Shown piece after piece: positions 21,095 through 53,529 of a stretch of 64,000 nucleotides of DNA. The notes beneath the pieces were generated by a model, which had not been told where the DNA came from, made no database searches, and worked only from the letters and a program-made list of their open reading frames with translations. Where the stretch lies: IMG/VR virus record IMGVR_UViG_3300015608_005401, positions 1 through 64,000 of that record. The stretch is one strand, 5' to 3'. Position numbers and translations under genes: made by a program. The first letter of the stretch is position 1. Every line of letters starts with the position of its first letter. This stretch comes from a virus. Its lineage: Duplodnaviria; Caudoviricetes.

Positions 21095-21184
21095 GGAGGT
21101 TTGGCAGAGCGGTCGAATGCGGCAGTCTTGAAAACTGCTTTACTCGTGAGGGTAACCGGGGTTCGAATCCCTGAGCCTCCGCCA
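21095..21184 (+). tRNA. tRNA-Ser(UGA)
   Basis: GGAGGTT/AGCCTCC acceptor, GCAGT-CTTGAAA-ACTGC arm, long variable arm, GGTTCGAATCC, CCA end. Confidence 0.92.
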
Positions 21185-21186
21185 AT

Positions 21187-21302
21187 ACAAGAGTGGCGGA
21201 AACAAACATTTTGCTAGTGAAGTGTTAATAGTAGACGTGACCTGATTAAAGGGTTGATTGATAGGTAACTAAATCGTGTTGGTGCGAGTCCAGCCTCTTG
21301 TA
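21187..21302 (+). tRNA. Atypical tRNA-Leu-like RNA with a D-loop insertion and an aberrant anticodon loop
   Basis: ACAAGAG/CTCTTGT acceptor, TGGCGGAA...GTAGACG Leu-type D arm, long variable arm, GTTGG-TGCGAGT-CCAGC T arm, discriminator A. Confidence 0.6.
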
Positions 21303-21303
21303 C

Positions 21304-41885: not shown

Positions 41886-42665
41886 ATGAAAAAAAACAAA
41901 CCCGAAGTACTAGAACAAAATGAAAAAAACTTTGAAACAGAGCCAACTTTTGCTGATATATATAATATAAATTATTCTGATGCGCAAGCATCATTAACGG
42001 CAAAAAATGGCAATACTATTGAGGATGAATTAATGACTCCTCAAACAAAAAATGAACGGCAAATTATGGAATCGAAGGCGATTTTATTCAGCGAACAAGA
42101 AAAAATCTTTAGAGAAAGAACGGGTAAGGATTTCTCTACACTCTACACAAAGTACTACCCAAAATTAGTTTATTTTACATCTAAAATTACTAATGACCCT
42201 CAAAAAGCCGAGGATATCTCAACAGACTCATTTATGGCGGCTTTTGAAAAAATTGAGAAATATGAAAAAGAAAAATCTCAATTCTCTACCTGGCTATTTA
42301 CTATAGCAAAAAACTTAGCACTTCAAGACCTTAAAAGCGAAAAGAAAACAATGTCATTAGATATTGAGTTTGACGATGAAGGTACAACAATGAAGGATTT
42401 TATTCAAGAAGACGAGAACGACAATCACATTCATGAAATTCACGCAAAGAAAGCTGAAATTATGAAAAGACACATTTCAATGTTGAAAAGTCCATATCGT
42501 GATGTTATTGAAATGAGAGAGCTTAAAAAGATGTCATATAAAGATATATCTGATAAACTTAATCTCAACTTATCAACAGTGAAATCTCAAATTAGAAATG
42601 GCAGAGCTATCTTAGTTCGCGAGACTAAGAAAGAGTTTGATGCTATCGATGAAATGCTAGGTTAA
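41886..42665 (+). CDS. ECF-like sigma-70 factor
   Basis: Region 2 AEDISTDSFM..FSTWLFTIAKN; region 4 MSYKDISDKLNLNLSTVKSQIRNGR. Confidence 0.9.
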   Translation: MKKNKPEVLEQNEKNFETEPTFADIYNINYSDAQASLTAKNGNTIEDELMTPQTKNERQIMESKAILFSEQEKIFRERTGKDFSTLYTKYYPKLVYFTSKITNDPQKAEDISTDSFMAAFEKIEKYEKEKSQFSTWLFTIAKNLALQDLKSEKKTMSLDIEFDDEGTTMKDFIQEDENDNHIHEIHAKKAEIMKRHISMLKSPYRDVIEMRELKKMSYKDISDKLNLNLSTVKSQIRNGRAILVRETKKEFDAIDEMLG

Positions 42666-42666
42666 T

Positions 42667-43971
42667 ATGAACATAGAATCTTTAGGAAGACAGGCTATAG
42701 ATAGAATCAAATCTGAGTGGGGATTGCCATTACACGGCTTTGTAGCCGGTGGTTCCATTGCAAACATTGTTTGGGAAATGGTATCTGGTAACAAAGCTAT
42801 TGTCAATGATATTGACATCTTTGTTTTTGATGGTATTGAAGAAGAGTTAGATAATGATTCTCATTCTCTTTTTAAGTACCAAGAAAAAGAAACAAAGTAC
42901 TACGAAGATTATAATGGTATGAATTTTAATAATTATACCAAAGACTTCTACTCTATAGTTGAATCCGAAAGAGACGAAATGTTCAATACTATTAAGTATA
43001 AATCAAATACGTCTGATCCATCTTTAATTATTAAATCATTTGATATCAACGCTACTCGTATTGGTTATGATATTGACAATGATAAATTATACTGGACTTC
43101 TGAATTTGAAGACTTCTTAAAAACTGGTGAGTTAAAAGTTTCAAATTTAATGACTCCTTCACACACAGCACTTCGTATAGCTAAGAAATCAAAAGAATTA
43201 AATGCCAAACTTGATGAATTTGAATTCAAATTACTTCAATATGCTCTCTCATATAGATTTATTGATAGAATTAAATTGAGATTTAGAGAACGATATTTAG
43301 AAATGTGTAAGGAGTATAAACATATCCTTTCTAATTATTTTCAAATGTCGAGAGATTTAGAGGCAGAAGATTTTGTTTTCACAAAAACTGGTGAGAAAGT
43401 AGAACTTTACTATTTAGTTGCTAGAGATATAACAACTGAAGTAAAAGAGTTGGATGACTTTGAGAAAATTGTTTATAGCAATCTCCCTAAGATATTTGAA
43501 GATGATAATCTTAGTAGAATATTTAAATCAACTGATTTCTTATTTTATATGAGAAATATTTATGGTAAAGACCAAACTCTTAAAGACATGTGGTCTAAGC
43601 TATATTACTTTTTTAATGATGTTCATTATGTTGATAGAGAGATAAGTAAAGAAGATATGGATTTATTGGAAAGATTTGGCAAGTATGCACCTGGTTCAAT
43701 TGAAAATCTAAAAGGGTTGAAGATATCTGAACAAATTGAGATCATCAAAAAGTTCTTAGAAACATTCAAAGAAGATCCACTTATTGCTATTTCTATATTA
43801 GAAAGTGTTAAAGTAGATAAAAATATAGTTTTAGATGAACAAACCATGTTATTATTAGAACTTTCTGTTAGAAAAAAAATAATTAATGATACTCGTGGTA
43901 AAGTCAATAAAATACTTAATATTGAACAAGTAGTAGATAAGAATAATAATAGTGATATTTGGATGTTTTAA
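42667..43971 (+). CDS. Nucleotidyltransferase with a CCA/poly(A)-polymerase-like head
   Basis: FVAGGSIAN...NDIDIF and SFDINAT. Confidence 0.65.
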   Translation: MNIESLGRQAIDRIKSEWGLPLHGFVAGGSIANIVWEMVSGNKAIVNDIDIFVFDGIEEELDNDSHSLFKYQEKETKYYEDYNGMNFNNYTKDFYSIVESERDEMFNTIKYKSNTSDPSLIIKSFDINATRIGYDIDNDKLYWTSEFEDFLKTGELKVSNLMTPSHTALRIAKKSKELNAKLDEFEFKLLQYALSYRFIDRIKLRFRERYLEMCKEYKHILSNYFQMSRDLEAEDFVFTKTGEKVELYYLVARDITTEVKELDDFEKIVYSNLPKIFEDDNLSRIFKSTDFLFYMRNIYGKDQTLKDMWSKLYYFFNDVHYVDREISKEDMDLLERFGKYAPGSIENLKGLKISEQIEIIKKFLETFKEDPLIAISILESVKVDKNIVLDEQTMLLLELSVRKKIINDTRGKVNKILNIEQVVDKNNNSDIWMF

Positions 43972-44016
43972 ACTTTCCTAATATATCCAATATAAAATAA
44001 AAAATAATAGAAAATT

Positions 44017-44340
44017 ATGGTAGCATATATTACTGAATTAAACGAGACCAACTATGATGACTTTGTAAGTGAAGGAGTTGTTCTTGTTGATGTTTGGGCG
44101 GCTTGGTGTGGTCCTTGTAAAGCAATTTCACCAATTATTGATCAAATCTCAGAAGAATATAAAGACAAGATTAAAGTAGGTAAATGTGACGCTGATGCTA
44201 ATAGAGATAAAGTAATGTCATTAGGTGTTAGAAATATACCAACATTATTTCTTTATAAAGACGGTCAAATCATTGATCAAATGAGCGGTGGAGGTAGTAA
44301 GAGTAAATTTACTGATTTTATCGATAAGCATTTATCATAA
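44017..44340 (+). CDS. trxA: Thioredoxin
   Basis: WAAWCGPCK; GVRNIPTL. Confidence 0.95.
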   Translation: MVAYITELNETNYDDFVSEGVVLVDVWAAWCGPCKAISPIIDQISEEYKDKIKVGKCDADANRDKVMSLGVRNIPTLFLYKDGQIIDQMSGGGSKSKFTDFIDKHLS

Positions 44341-44461
44341 TGATTGATATTAAAGAATTGTTTGACTTAGTTAGGCAATCCGATATTACACTTATTGGTT
44401 ACACTTTCAGAAATGAAAGAATTAAAGACAAGTTTATTTCCAATTTTAATTTATTTGCAGA

Positions 44462-44896
44462 ATGAAAATTACAACAAATAGAAAAGCTTATTATGAATAC
44501 TTTGTGTTGGAAGACTTCGACGCAGGTATGGTTCTATTGGGCAATGAAGTTAAATCAATTCGTGAGGGTAATGTAACCATCACTGATTGTTTTGCTTATA
44601 TAGCAAGTGGTGAAATATTCTTAAAGAATATGAAGGTAGCCAGATATAAACAAACTCATATGGCAGAAAAACATGATGAAAATCGTGATAAGAAACTATT
44701 GCTAAATAGAAAAGAAATAGACAGAATTGAAAAGTTGCTTCAAGATAAAGGAACAACTATGGTTCCTCTTGAGATATTCACAGCACACAATAGAATTAAA
44801 GTTAAAATTGGAGTAGTAAAGGGTAAAAAACTTTACGACAAAAGAGAAACTATTAAAAAAAGAGATATGGATCGTGAGATCCGTCGTAGTATGTAA
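44462..44896 (+). CDS. smpB: SsrA-binding protein
   Basis: NRKAYYEY, AGMVLLGNEVKSIR, RDKKLLLNRKEI, GKKLYDKRETIK. Confidence 0.95.
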   Translation: MKITTNRKAYYEYFVLEDFDAGMVLLGNEVKSIREGNVTITDCFAYIASGEIFLKNMKVARYKQTHMAEKHDENRDKKLLLNRKEIDRIEKLLQDKGTTMVPLEIFTAHNRIKVKIGVVKGKKLYDKRETIKKRDMDREIRRSM

Positions 44897-47177: not shown

Positions 47178-47183
47178 TATAAG

Positions 47184-47570
47184 AATTAACCAAGTCATTG
47201 AGACAACAGTCCTAAAAGGATAAGTCGAAAGACCTCACAAAATATGATAAGAAAAAAGTGTGAGTCTCAATGAAATTATGGTAGTAAGTAACTGTCAAAT
47301 AATTTAACACCCTTGTTAAAAAACAGTGAACTACCTTGTATAATATATTAATAATGATATAGTAAGGGTGTAGATATCAAAATTGTGTTGGTGATAGATA
47401 TCTCAAATAACTAATGATTAAATCCAACTCAAAGAAGATATTACCCGAGCAGAATGGTAACACTGCTCAACCAAGGCGATGAGCCATTAAAAGGTAATCC
47501 TAAGTGATGAGGTCACTAAAAGTCAAGTTCCAGAGGTTCTCGGATTCCAACCATACTTGACAGGCGTTCC
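47184..47570 (+). ncRNA. Large multi-domain structured ncRNA candidate (about 390 nt)
   Basis: No ORF; at least 10 helices, GAAA tetraloop and two loop-receptor complementarities (see findings). Confidence 0.7.
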
Positions 47571-47611
47571 AAAGTCTTCTTTTTATTTAGAAATTATTAA
47601 AAACAAAGTAT

Positions 47612-48304: not shown

Positions 48305-48414
48305 AAATAAAAAAATAAAAAAAAATTAGGTAGATTTAAAACTTCTTTCTATATTTGTATAAAATAATACAGAAAATAACAAAAGGAACAAAAACTTTTT
48401 AATATATAATAACA

Positions 48415-48513
48415 ATGAGAACAAATCGCACACATAAACATTTTAGTAAATCGAATAAGTGGTTTAGAAACCAGTTCGGTACTGAAAGTGTATTGCTCTC
48501 AAATAAGATGTAA
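48415..48513 (+). CDS. Putative leader peptide (His/Phe/Trp) of a tRNA operon
   Basis: MRTNRTHKHFSKSNKWFRNQFGTESVLLSNKM*; TATATTTG at 48350 and TTAATATATA at 48399; terminator follows. Confidence 0.65.
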   Translation: MRTNRTHKHFSKSNKWFRNQFGTESVLLSNKM

Positions 48514-48542
48514 CAAATCTATATTTATACAAGACAATATTC

Positions 48543-48580
48543 AAAGTCCGAACTTAAAAAAAGTTCGGACTTTTTTGTTT
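48543..48580 (+). terminator. Intrinsic terminator (putative attenuator) before tRNA-His
   Basis: AAAGTCCGAACTT-aaaaa-AAGTTCGGACTTT-tttgttt. Confidence 0.85.
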
Positions 48581-48585
48581 TATAT

Positions 48586-48671
48586 GGTGTCGTTAGTGTC
48601 AGCGGTGAGTCTTCGGACGAGCATATGGCTCTGTGAAAGCCAAGGGACGGGTTCAAATCCCGTACGACACC
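48586..48671 (+). tRNA. tRNA-His(GUG) with an extra UUCG hairpin in the D-loop
   Basis: G-1 8-bp acceptor GGTGTCGT/ACGACACC; TGGCT-CTGTGAA-AGCCA; GGGTTCAAATCCC. Confidence 0.85.
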
Positions 48672-48729
48672 CCTTGATTTTTTTTGACTTTTGATTTTAA
48701 TATATAAAGAAATCAAAAGTCAAAAAAAA

Positions 48730-49371
48730 ATGAAAAAAGAAAAAGTAAGGTATTACTTCTTATATAAGACTACCAATAAAATGAATGGTAAATTTTATAT
48801 AGGAGTACATAGTACAATAAAAATGAATGATGGGTATTTAGGATCCGGTAAAAGACTTAGATACTCGATGAGAAAATATGGAAAGGAGAATTTTGAAATA
48901 GATATATTAGAATTTTTCAATAGTAGAGAACTTATGTTTGAAGCTGAGAGAAACCTTGTTAATACTGATTTAATTAAAAATGAATTATGTATGAATTTAA
49001 AAGAAGGTGGTATTGGTGGGTGGACAAAAGAACAACAAATAGAGAATGCTAATAGATCTAATATTAAAAAGAAAGAATTGAGAGATAATAATCCAGAATG
49101 GAGAGGGCTTGAAAAGATAAGAAATTCAGAAAATATGAGAAAATCATATGAGAGAGGAGATAGAGAAAAAAAGCAACCTATGGATTGGACTGGTAAAAGA
49201 CATAAAAGGGAGACTATTCAGAAAATGAAAAAATCCAAAAATGTTGGTAAATTAAACTCTCAATATGGTACAAAGTGGATTAATAAAGATGGTATTATTA
49301 AAAAAATAAAAGAAAATGAACTTGAATATTATCTGAACAATGGATGGATTCAAGGTAGAAAAGGAACCTAA
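48730..49371 (+). CDS. GIY-YIG (Seg-like) homing endonuclease with NUMOD3; stop codon lies inside tRNA-Phe
   Basis: FLYKTTNKMNGKFYIGVH, DGYLGSG, MNLKEGG, GKRHKRETIQKM. Confidence 0.88.
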   Translation: MKKEKVRYYFLYKTTNKMNGKFYIGVHSTIKMNDGYLGSGKRLRYSMRKYGKENFEIDILEFFNSRELMFEAERNLVNTDLIKNELCMNLKEGGIGGWTKEQQIENANRSNIKKKELRDNNPEWRGLEKIRNSENMRKSYERGDREKKQPMDWTGKRHKRETIQKMKKSKNVGKLNSQYGTKWINKDGIIKKIKENELEYYLNNGWIQGRKGT

Positions 49372-49438
49372 GCTAATCAGGTGAAAGCACTGGACTGAAA
49401 ATCCAGGGAGCCCGGATCGTTACCGGGAGGTTCCACCA
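49363..49438 (+). tRNA. tRNA-Phe(GAA)
   Basis: GGAACCT/AGGTTCC acceptor, CTGGA-CTGAAAA-TCCAG, encoded CCA; atypical T-loop ATCGTTA. Confidence 0.85.
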
Positions 49439-49447
49439 AAAAAAAAT

Positions 49448-49523
49448 GGTGATTGTAGCTCAATCGGTAGAGCGCAGGTTTGTGGAGCCGAGGGTCGGGA
49501 TTTCGAAATTCCTCGTTCACCCA
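49448..49523 (+). tRNA. tRNA-His(GUG)
   Basis: G-1, TAGCTCAATCGGTAGAGCG D arm, TTGTGGA loop, weak anticodon stem. Confidence 0.75.
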
Positions 49524-49528
49524 AAAAA

Positions 49529-49598
49529 GAGGGGATAACATAATGGTAGTGTACCGGGCGGAAAACCGGTAGTGTTAGTTCGATTCTAGCTCCCTTCA
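49529..49598 (+). tRNA. Atypical tRNA, probably Phe(GAA)
   Basis: GAGGGGA/TCCCTTC acceptor, TACCGG-GCGGAAAA-CCGGTA with a non-canonical 8-nt loop, GTTAG-TTCGATT-CTAGC. Confidence 0.55.
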
Positions 49599-49606
49599 CT
49601 ACAAAT

Positions 49607-49690
49607 GTGGCAGTAGCTGAGACGGTGGCGTAAGCCTGTAGCGCTTGGTTTGAAAAACCAGAGACATCGGTTCGAATCCGATCTGTCACA
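49607..49690 (+). tRNA. tRNA-Phe(GAA) with an extra GNRA hairpin in the D-loop
   Basis: GTGGCAG/CTGTCAC, TTGGT-TTGAAAA-ACCAG, ATCGG-TTCGAAT-CCGAT. Confidence 0.8.
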
Positions 49691-49696
49691 CAAAAT

Positions 49697-49778
49697 ACAG
49701 GTACTCATTGGTGTGACCAGCCGGCTCCAACCCGGTAATTCGTAAGAGTGGCTAAGAGTTCGAGTCTCTTTACCTGTG
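49697..49778 (+). tRNA. tRNA-Trp(CCA), short D arm and long variable arm
   Basis: ACAGGTA/TACCTGT, GCCGG-CTCCAAC-CCGGT, AAGAG-TTCGAGT-CTCTT. Confidence 0.72.
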
Positions 49779-49786
49779 CTAAAAAT

Positions 49787-49857
49787 ACATCTGTGGTGAA
49801 ATGGTATCATTTTTGTCTCCAAAACAAAAGTTCTTGGTTCGAGCCCAGGCAGGTGTG
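49787..49857 (+). tRNA. tRNA-Trp(CCA)
   Basis: ACATCTG/CAGGTGT, TTTGT-CTCCAAA-ACAAA, CTTGG-TTCGAGC-CCAGG. Confidence 0.88.
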
Positions 49858-49911
49858 CTAAAAAGGTATGGAGAGGTTCAACTTTTTAATATATAAAATA
49901 AAAACTTATAT

Positions 49912-50580
49912 ATGAAAATTTTAGATAACCTTGATATATCTGATATTCAGAGAAAACTGAATGAGTCTAAATCATTTAGAGAGTTTCTATTAAAAATAGG
50001 ATCTTCATCTAATGGGTCTGGTTCATACAAATCTATTAAGAATCAATTAATTAAATTAGGAGTTATAATTCCTGAGTTTAATTATGAGAATAAAAATAAA
50101 ATTAGTAAAAAAATTGATGATGTTGATGTTTTTATAAAAGGTTCTTTTTATAGTAGACAAAGATTAAAAGAAAGAATTATTAAAAATAAACTAATTGATT
50201 ACAGATGTGAGGAATGTGGAAATGATGGCGATTGGAATGGTAAAAATCTAAGCTTACATCTTGAACACAAAAATGGAGTTAATGATGATAATAGATTAGA
50301 AAATCTAACATTCTTATGTCCAAATTGTCACTCACAGACCGAAACTTATAGTGGTAAAAATAGGAAGAAAAAAGAAAAAAGAAAGTGTGAGTGTGGTAGA
50401 GAAATATTCAAAACAAGTAAAATGTGTTTAGATTGTAACTCTATAAAAAATAGAAAAGTTGAAAGACCGTCAATTGAAAAACTAAAAGAAGAAGTTGTTG
50501 AGTTTGGATATAAAGCTATTGGTAGAAAGTATGGTGTTAGTGATAACACAATTAGAAAATGGATTAAAATAAAAAAGTAA
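49912..50580 (+). CDS. HNH homing endonuclease with C-terminal HTH
   Basis: CEEC...LHLEHKNGVNDDNRLENLTFLCPNCHSQT; GRKYGVSDNTIRKW. Confidence 0.92.
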   Translation: MKILDNLDISDIQRKLNESKSFREFLLKIGSSSNGSGSYKSIKNQLIKLGVIIPEFNYENKNKISKKIDDVDVFIKGSFYSRQRLKERIIKNKLIDYRCEECGNDGDWNGKNLSLHLEHKNGVNDDNRLENLTFLCPNCHSQTETYSGKNRKKKEKRKCECGREIFKTSKMCLDCNSIKNRKVERPSIEKLKEEVVEFGYKAIGRKYGVSDNTIRKWIKIKK

Positions 50581-50596
50581 AAATTAGATTAAGAAA

Positions 50597-50626
50597 ATGA
50601 AAAGTAAGTTGAAATATAAACGCTAG
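50597..50626 (+). CDS. Possible Lys-rich leader peptide before three tRNA-Lys
   Basis: MKSKLKYKR*, immediately followed by GGCAACGACC/GGTCGTTGCC 10-bp hairpin (50626-50655). Confidence 0.4.
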   Translation: MKSKLKYKR

Positions 50627-50667
50627 GCAACGACCAATTGAGAGGGGTCGTTGCCATTAAAAACAAT

Positions 50668-50740
50668 GATTCCGTAGCTCAATTGGTGGAGCTTCCGGCT
50701 TTTAACCGGAAGGATGTGGGTTCAAGTCCCACCGGGATCA
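50668..50740 (+). tRNA. tRNA-Lys(UUU)
   Basis: TCCGG-CTTTTAA-CCGGA; GTGGGTTCAAGTCCCAC. Confidence 0.92.
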
Positions 50741-50753
50741 CTAAAATAAAAAC

Positions 50754-50825
50754 GATCTTGTAGCTCAATTGGTGGAGCTTCCGACTCTTAATCGGAAGGT
50801 TGTGGGTTCGAGTCCCCCAGGATCA
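50754..50825 (+). tRNA. tRNA-Lys(CUU)
   Basis: TCCGA-CTCTTAA-TCGGA; GTGGGTTCGAGTCCC. Confidence 0.88.
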
Positions 50826-50829
50826 CAAA

Positions 50830-50901
50830 GGATTCATGACGTAATTGGTAGCGTCCCAGACTTTTAATCTGGTAGTCCGAGTTCGAGTCTCGGTGGATCC
50901 A
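50830..50901 (+). tRNA. tRNA-Lys(UUU)
   Basis: CCAGA-CTTTTAA-TCTGG; CCGAG-TTCGAGT-CTCGG. Confidence 0.9.
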
Positions 50902-50982
50902 CTAAATACGTCTGTCGTAGTAATCTTACTTTTTTAAAACGTAGGTTCGATATTTTAATATATAAAATAAATTATATTAAAT

Positions 50983-52846: not shown

Positions 52847-52921
52847 ATGAAAACTATTAAGATTACATCGTCAAGTTCAAGTCGCTCGTCAAAAACGAGT
52901 GAGGTTCGATCGTATTCATAA
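52847..52921 (+). CDS. Putative Ser/Arg leader peptide of a tRNA operon
   Basis: MKTIKITSSSSSRSSKTSEVRSYS*; 10 of 24 residues Ser. Confidence 0.75.
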   Translation: MKTIKITSSSSSRSSKTSEVRSYS

Positions 52922-52945
52922 TAGTCGTATAATAAGATATTTGTG

Positions 52946-52984
52946 AAACCCTCGAACTTCAAGTTTGAGGGTTTTTTGTTTTAA
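52946..52984 (+). terminator. Intrinsic terminator (putative attenuator) before tRNA-Arg
   Basis: AAACCCTCGAAC-ttcaa-GTTTGAGGGTTT-tttgtttt. Confidence 0.85.
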
Positions 52985-52987
52985 TAT

Positions 52988-53060
52988 GGTTCCATCGTTC
53001 AACTGGACAGGACACTCCGCTACGAACGGAGAAATGAGGGTTCGAATCCTTCTGGAACTA
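52988..53060 (+). tRNA. tRNA-Arg(ACG)
   Basis: GGTTCCA/TGGAACT; CTCCG-CTACGAA-CGGAG; GAGGGTTCGAATCCTTC. Confidence 0.92.
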
Positions 53061-53065
53061 CAAAT

Positions 53066-53149
53066 GGAGAAGTAACTTAGCCGGCGCTAAGCACAGTCTT
53101 GAAAACTGCTGGTACCTTCGGGTATGGGGATCGACACCTCACTTCTCCG
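53066..53149 (+). tRNA. tRNA-Ser(UGA)
   Basis: GGAGAAG/CTTCTCC; CAGT-CTTGAAA-ACTG; variable arm TACC-TTCG-GGTA. Confidence 0.85.
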
Positions 53150-53154
53150 CAACT

Positions 53155-53237
53155 GGAAGTGGCCCGAATGGACGAGGAACTTGTCTTGAAAACAAGCGGC
53201 TGTAAAAGGTTTGGGGGTTCGATTCCCTTCGCTTCCG
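53155..53237 (+). tRNA. tRNA-Ser(UGA)
   Basis: GGAAG/CTTCC acceptor; CTTGT-CTTGAAA-ACAAG; GGGGGTTCGATTCCC. Confidence 0.88.
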
Positions 53238-53335
53238 CAAAATAGAATACTGGCAAAGTCCTGGCTGGACTGGTTCGAATCCATAAGCCATCAGCTAACC
53301 ACTGATAAAGATTGGTAATCTTTGTATTCTTATTT

Positions 53336-53421
53336 GGAGAGTAAAGTAGCCAGGGTGCTACCACCGCCTGCTAAGCGAGTGGCACGGTAAAACGTGTGAG
53401 TTTCGAATACTCTGCTCTCCG
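53336..53421 (+). tRNA. tRNA-Ser(GCU)
   Basis: GGAGAG/CTCTCC; CGC-CTGCTAA-GCG; variable arm CACG-GTAAAA-CGTG. Confidence 0.85.
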
Positions 53422-53427
53422 CTAATT

Positions 53428-53513
53428 GGAGAGTAATCTAATCGGGGTATTAGCCACGCCTGGAAAGCGTTGGGTGCGTTCATTCGCATGTGGTTCGAGT
53501 CCACTGCTCTCCG
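53428..53513 (+). tRNA. tRNA-Ser(GGA)
   Basis: GGAGAG/CTCTCC; ACGC-CTGGAAA-GCGT; GTGGTTCGAGTCCAC. Confidence 0.88.
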
Positions 53514-53529
53514 CAAAAAGAATAAAAAT

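Follow-up and report, generated by a model that had tools for sequence, protein, structure and literature searches.

The trpL and hisL leaders are leader-peptide attenuators of the pheL kind, and in the multivalent attenuators thrL (Thr/Ile) and the ilvGMEDA leader (Ile/Leu/Val) one leader serves several amino acids. In E. coli pheM-pheST, attenuation by charged tRNA controls a synthetase, and T-boxes contact tRNA themselves, independently of translation. The phage locus described here is very probably a ribosome-mediated transcription attenuator, one that adjusts a tRNA operon to how much of its own encoded tRNAs is available. It resembles E. coli pheL-pheA in its short leader ORF with cognate codons, in its 1:2, 2:3 and 3:4 pairings and U tract, and in the predicted freeing of segment 2 by stalling; its control would also be kinetic, as in pheL (PMC3082878). 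However, its targets are tRNAs and not biosynthetic enzymes, it is borne by a phage, and each amino acid has one or two codons in its leader where pheL, trpL and hisL have runs. As in thrL and ilvGMEDA, several amino acids would be sampled by one leader, but here they number at least four, are set by the tRNA content of the operon, and are represented by codons chosen at the isoacceptor level. The likeness to pheM-pheST is that a component of the translation machinery would be under charged-tRNA attenuation; pheM-pheST is a single operon with a synthetase as its target, whereas the phage target is tRNA and the set is genome-wide. The T-box riboswitch is similar in that tRNA charging sets the choice between terminator and antiterminator. 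A search of the window with Rfam gave no T-box match, and neither a His, Trp or Phe leader nor any other leader or riboswitch family was matched at the gathering and E-value thresholds; a Thr_leader match on the terminator hairpin was sub-threshold (18.8 bits, cut-off 55).

What phages gain from their tRNAs has been debated for about 50 years, and the work on phage tRNAs and host tRNA depletion supplies a likely purpose, with no regulatory element described (PMC10264068). We found no attenuators on tRNA operons in the literature covered, which included PMC7162821, PMC10264068 and PMC10914365 and took in few subscription journals. What is new is the target of the attenuator, phage tRNA operons in a set spanning most of the code; the mechanism itself is known.

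The window, the whole stretch of 64 kb that was analysed, is the first part of a 74.7-kb virus record. It is part of an uncultured, Mahaphage-like huge phage of freshwater type with a Bacteroidota host. The closest relative of its contig is a 476-kb record, 97% complete, with a Gp23 capsid gene; no capsid gene was found on the window contig itself, and one is present in the close relative G001. The sigma factor and M42 peptidase are 72–82% identical to those of LR745206 (634 kb) and LR756502 (642 kb), and nearly all of the best 80 bacterial relatives of the M42 peptidase belong to Bacteroidota. Genomes of these two sizes are assigned to the Mahaphage clade, for which Bacteroidetes hosts are predicted (PMC7162821).

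The operon and its parts, described below, lie on the + strand. The leader ORF, of 32 codons, occupies 48415–48513 and contains, as the earlier note had described, two His, three Phe and one Trp (His7, His9, Phe10, Trp16, Phe17 and Phe21). It also holds Lys8, Lys12 and Lys15, so that the sensed set becomes His, Lys, Phe and Trp, and the sensing tract is made up of these residues with Ser at codons 7–17. Upstream, at 48326–48357, is a putative promoter with a −33 TTAG, which reads TTTG in relatives, and a −7 TATATTTG at 48350–48357; we take it to be of the Bacteroidota housekeeping type from the known consensus. The same −7 motif was found 5′ of 59 of 92 comparable leader–terminator–tRNA units. 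A second motif, TAATATATA, lies at 48400–48408, 6 nt 5′ of the leader ATG. There are 21 + strand copies of it against 3 expected, and an AATATA-type motif precedes 57 of the 92 leaders; judged by this distribution it is a probable phage promoter. The phage sigma-70-family factor, encoded together with SmpB within 41886–44896, is a candidate reader of it. An A is present at −3 in 70 of the 92 leaders.

The terminator hairpin begins 29 nt after the leader ORF. It has the 13 pairs and T tract previously noted (hairpin 48543–48573; 48543–48581 with the U tract; −17.6 kcal/mol), and tRNA-His starts at 48586, 5 nt beyond it. Also as previously noted, leader nucleotides 48473–48483 copy the terminator 3′ arm (48562–48571) with one additional T, and can therefore pair with the 5′ arm (48545–48554); this is segment 2, the antiterminator strand. 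Two elements are added to that picture: a 1:2 hairpin (48438–48491, −15.6 kcal/mol), predicted to mask the antiterminator in the absence of a ribosome (P = 0.94), and an inner extension of the 2:3 stem (48490–48495 : 48535–48540), which brings the whole 2:3 structure (48473–48554) to −18.6 kcal/mol. The region 48400–48590 folds far more stably than shuffled sequence (z = −6.5), and in the computed folds 1:2, 2:3 and 3:4 are mutually exclusive and have similar energies.

The effect of a stalled ribosome was modelled by folding the transcript up to the point just before segment 4 emerges, with ribosome-covered bases masked (footprints of +9, +12 and +15). With the +12 footprint, the probability of 2:3 was 0.02 without a ribosome and 0.93–0.98 with the A site at any codon from His7 to Trp16. 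It was 0.05 at Arg18, and 0.00 at Asn19 and beyond. The note had suggested that stalls at Trp16 and Phe17 may partly cover the antiterminator. This does not apply to Trp16, where P(2:3) was 0.98 for footprints of +9 and +12 and 0.56 for +15, while Phe17 is borderline in this leader (0.98, 0.56 and 0.05 for +9, +12 and +15) and works across the family. P(2:3) thus stays high through Trp16/Phe17 and is then lost, so that the predicted sensing window and the cognate tract have the same end point. Phe21 is within the antiterminator and so cannot act as a sensor; this position is Leu in many relatives. When the full transcript was folded at equilibrium, the terminator won whatever the state of the ribosome, which means that control must be kinetic, with 2:3 forming ahead of the emergence of segment 4.

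The leader ORF lies between promoter and genes, its cognate codons precede segment 2, and the terminator precedes the first tRNA; the computed folds and covariation give exclusive 1:2 and 2:3 pairings and a stall geometry that would free segment 2. By every feature testable here in sequence and in model, the phage unit is a ribosome-mediated attenuator. The proposed mechanism is as follows. The leader would be transcribed by RNA polymerase and translated by a ribosome. With decoding of the His, Lys, Phe and Trp codons at its usual rate, the ribosome would pass codon 19 and cover segment 2, and 3:4 with its U tract would terminate transcription; an untranslated leader would form 1:2, with termination likewise. 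If any of the four charged tRNAs is scarce, the ribosome would wait at codons 7–17 with segment 1 blocked, and segment 2, now freed, would capture the terminator 5′ arm, allowing the tRNA block to be transcribed. The tRNA output would restore decoding, making the circuit one of negative feedback. The phage probably makes these tRNAs only if ribosomes are short of them, and the purpose may be the replacement of tRNA lost in infection, for example to host anticodon nucleases.

Conservation of the leader was assessed in orthologues found by neighbour genes and tRNA positions alone (L001, L002, L003, L032 and a 735-kb phage), in two further orthologues from BLAST of the region, and in the products of pattern scans of viral and metagenome contigs, for a total of 70 distinct leader variants, counts of which are phylogenetically non-independent. 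For most of the 70, the search pattern was itself derived from the sensing tract, which makes tract conservation among them circular. The Lys-Trp-Phe triplet is nevertheless retained in all five relatives found without the leader pattern. The 70 variants have an ATG and an open frame, and a terminator was found in 69 of them. In 68 of 69 variants, the spacer between Phe17 and segment 2, a region outside the search pattern, measures 6, 9, 12 or 15 nt; since these lengths are multiples of three, the frame is preserved, which lends indirect support to translation of the leader. Of 51 leaders folded, 96% form the 1:2 hairpin, and the stall profile does not differ among the 51, with a median P(2:3) at Phe17 of 0.99 at +12. 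The tRNA runs behind the leader vary freely in order among relatives. His, Phe, Trp and Lys are represented together in 56 of 68 runs, and in 50 runs no other tRNA occurs. The leader pattern gave no matches in GTDB genomes, and no cultured phage carrying the system was among the best 60 BLAST rows.

Compensatory changes were seen at 5 of the 7 core 2:3 pairs. In a large subgroup, concerted changes in segment 2 and both terminator arms (5′, then 3′) turn TTCGG/CCGAA/TTCGG into CTTGG/CCAAG/CTTGG, and flanking pairs are also swapped. The core swaps are C-G/T-A, T-A/C-G, G-C/A-T and A-T/G-C, and are mirrored in the 3′ arm. Counted on anchored segments, the core was paired in 92% of cases against 84% when shuffled, a level reached in 5 of 20,000 shuffles; the anchor of one leader (L042) is off by one register, which lowers this score. 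The residues encoded over segment 2 vary along with segment 2, indicating that it is the pairing and not the peptide that is conserved there.

A peptide-based alternative is a nascent-chain arrest of the TnaC/SecM type, brought about by a ligand or a phage protein, in which the codon match would be secondary. Conservation of the His-Phe-Ser...Lys-Trp-Phe core even in the 735-kb phage fits such an arrest. However, the nucleotides of the tract double as the 1:2 hairpin, and the leaders of sister units have no motif in common, each mirroring its own tRNA set; Gln-only operons, for instance, have Gln runs in the leader, one of them before three tRNA-Gln genes. We therefore regard arrest by the peptide as very improbable.

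The sister units form a genome-wide set. The contig holds five units (His/Lys/Phe/Trp, Ser/Arg, Tyr/Glu, Ile/Gly/Ala and Asn/Ile); the Ser/Arg unit (52847–53514, + strand), for example, has a leader at 52847–52921 and a terminator at 52945–52975, followed by tRNA-Arg(ACG) and Ser genes. The tRNA genes of the phage are divided into about four to seven operons with such leaders, which jointly cover most amino acids. A survey of leader composition against downstream anticodons, as the earlier note had proposed, was run with one fixed rule on the tRNA clusters of relatives and gave 92 distinct units on 25 phage contigs. On average 41% of leader residues matched the downstream tRNA set, with 19% expected. 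When leader/tRNA pairings were permuted within genomes, none of 20,000 permutations reached the observed score; these 92 units included two likely false ones, dropped from the later composition, antiterminator and codon tests. In every one of the 16 genomes that have at least three units, no pairing scored above the true one, which came first of 5,040 in three of them. With one leader taken per sequence cluster (17 clusters), none of 5,000 permutations reached the observed score in each of 20 draws. The permutation tests rule out a chance match between leader and tRNAs. Together with the switch folding and the covariation, they strongly support the original reading of the locus as an attenuator whose leader composition is matched to its tRNAs.

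The match is concentrated where it would be sensed. Cognate residues make up 51% of positions before the antiterminator and 23% from the antiterminator onward, and for all 20 amino acids the frequency before the antiterminator is higher if the cognate tRNA lies downstream. For Trp, the frequency in the sensing part is 0.063 with and 0.001 without a downstream tRNA, and for His 0.125 and 0.008. Where operons are regrouped, leaders differ accordingly: fused Tyr/Glu and Ile/Gly/Ala blocks have a single leader with all five residues (G007, L038 and L044), and one genome (G005) groups its tRNAs as Phe/Glu/Asp/Ala and Cys/Val/Leu, each group with a matching leader. In a 636-kb phage, His and Phe tRNAs are preceded by a separate leader rich in Phe, Trp and His, and LR756500 has one unit, His/Glu/Val/Trp/Leu. 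In G006 and G008, the His/Lys/Phe/Trp leader is followed immediately by Ser/Arg tRNAs, a possible reason for the Ser and Arg codons in this leader. No convincing unit was found in Lak-A1, nor was a codon-matched leader found in a small sample of 40 tRNA loci from two Bacteroidota genomes, Flavobacterium resistens and a Pontibacter. Leaders pair more strongly with the arm of their own terminator than with the arms of other operon types (−9.4 versus −6.2 kcal/mol), and the antiterminator is better than synonymous recoding (p ≤ 0.05) in only 49 of 90 units.

These results also bear on the idea that the terminator is constitutive and ends a small RNA or peptide gene, with the tRNAs made from other promoters or through antitermination by a phage protein and the match being historical or accidental. 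In its favour, the terminator dominates at equilibrium, and the operon of the window genome has internal promoter-like motifs. Against this stand the covarying antiterminator, the permutation tests, the changed leaders of regrouped operons, and the position of most terminators only 5–30 nt from the first tRNA. We consider a constitutive terminator highly unlikely.

The internal motifs just mentioned belong to the layout of the operon behind the terminator. The order His, Phe, His, Phe-like, Phe, Trp, Trp given in the note was recovered with ARAGORN and Rfam; its His/Phe/Trp set was correct, and the three Lys genes at the operon end and the Lys codons of the leader had been missed. The first gene, tRNA-His(GTG) (48586–48673), has a G-1 and an extra D loop hairpin, and homologues in 23 loci. 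It is followed by tRNA-Phe(GAA) (49363–49438), a second tRNA-His(GTG) with a weak anticodon stem (about 49448–49522), a Phe-like tRNA whose anticodon loop has 8 nt (49529–49599), a second tRNA-Phe(GAA) with an extra hairpin in its D loop (49607–49691), and two tRNA-Trp(CCA) genes, the first with a long variable arm (49697–49779) and the second at 49787–49858. The Lys genes (TTT, CTT and TTT) lie at 50668–50902. The odd tRNAs (the first His, the second Phe, the first Trp and the Phe-like one) are possibly nuclease-resistant or decoy forms.

Two endonuclease genes are inserted in this operon and are outside the core system: a GIY-YIG homing endonuclease gene (48730–49371; weak GIY-YIG match in Pfam, and T4 Seg-like matches) between the first His and first Phe genes, which is missing from most relatives, and an HNH endonuclease gene (49912–50580) after the second Trp gene. 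They carried in the TAATATATA motifs at 48698 and 49887, which may drive the downstream tRNAs and bypass the attenuator in the window genome; in 49 of 56 relatives the operon has no internal TAATATATA motif. Apart from a T run after the acceptor stem of the first tRNA-His, no intrinsic terminator was found between the His-to-Trp block and the Lys tRNAs, and in compact relatives the Lys tRNAs come directly next in the operon.

The sensed quantity can be narrowed by codon choice. Before tRNAs reading CGN, 21 of 27 leader Arg codons are CGN, although CGN makes up only 12% of the Arg codons of the phage; before AGR readers none of 11 is CGN and all 11 are AGA. Ile codons are ATA in 26 of 34 cases before Ile(TAT) and in 2 of 20 before Ile(GAT), where 18 of 20 are ATT or ATC. 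Lys and Glu codons show no isoacceptor tracking, and the Arg and Ile counts are not independent. Within these leaders, the codon pattern points to the tRNA species and not the amino acid as the sensed quantity. The same switch could instead be a general sensor of amino-acid starvation or slow translation, with tRNA synthesis as part of a translation-rescue response, and we regard this as possible, though doubtful. To a stall, a missing and an uncharged tRNA are indistinguishable, as established for pheL (PMC3082878), tRNA synthetases are often encoded by huge phages (PMC7162821), and in the stall model read-through was partly favoured at codons 2–6 too (P about 0.6). However, sensing an amino acid would not need a codon choice that follows the downstream isoacceptor even against phage codon usage, and more tRNA would presumably not cure a lack of amino acid. 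Since additional tRNA would bring no such relief, the likeliest purpose of the attenuator is feedback on tRNA supply.

Extending this reading to the whole set, we incline, with some reserve, to the view that the tRNA operons of huge Bacteroidota phages act together as a genome-wide homeostat, in which codon-matched attenuators, one for each operon, detect tRNAs cleaved or exhausted by the host and only those are made. If so, these phages would have a counter-defence against tRNA-targeting immunity that is both inducible and self-tuning, and the leaders could be read as a record of the tRNAs that are depleted. tRNA genes switched on by stalls at their own codons would amount to a demand-driven supplement, and codon compensation and replacement of depleted tRNA become separately testable with simple reporters. 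The textbook attenuator would be extended to a new class of target, in which the product is the sensor molecule. The largest phage genomes published (634–735 kb) contain the system, which had gone unremarked there. Its leaders aid the assignment of odd tRNAs missed by standard tools, and offer compact multi-input tRNA biosensors.

Several further elements were noted in and around these operons. A perfect 21-bp inverted repeat (48678–48729), common to four loci, has TAATATATA at its loop and ends at the GIY-YIG start codon. In T4, homing endonuclease genes are silenced on early transcripts by hairpins, and the repeat resembles these by analogy. A conserved element with a strong hairpin (50587–50660), present in 31 loci just 5′ of the Lys tRNAs, is probably either a tRNA that has diverged or a signal for processing. 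In one relative (L003:7625–8900), a short ORF, a tRNA-Glu and a GIY-YIG-type insertion lie between the His/Lys/Phe/Trp attenuator and a Phe/His/Trp/Lys block. Some tRNA genes have neither leader nor terminator in front, namely tRNA-Ser(TGA) and a tRNA-like neighbour (21095–21303) and a tRNA-Met(CAT) at contig positions 66389–66461. In relatives, too, Met(CAT) genes frequently lie apart from attenuated units. Several relatives have tRNAs with the CTA anticodon, which read amber (L052:1131, L064:833, L083:1086–1164 and L027), and these are outside attenuated units. Finally, an ORF-free conserved RNA of about 400 nt (47180–47580, + strand) has its own Bacteroidota-type promoter and lies 5′ of yqeY. 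It is 84–86% identical in at least 40 related loci, with two-sided changes at 14 of 96 predicted pairs (9 sequences), and has no Rfam match. No tmRNA was found in the window and smpB lies 2.3 kb upstream, which makes this RNA a candidate for a divergent tmRNA or a new large ncRNA.
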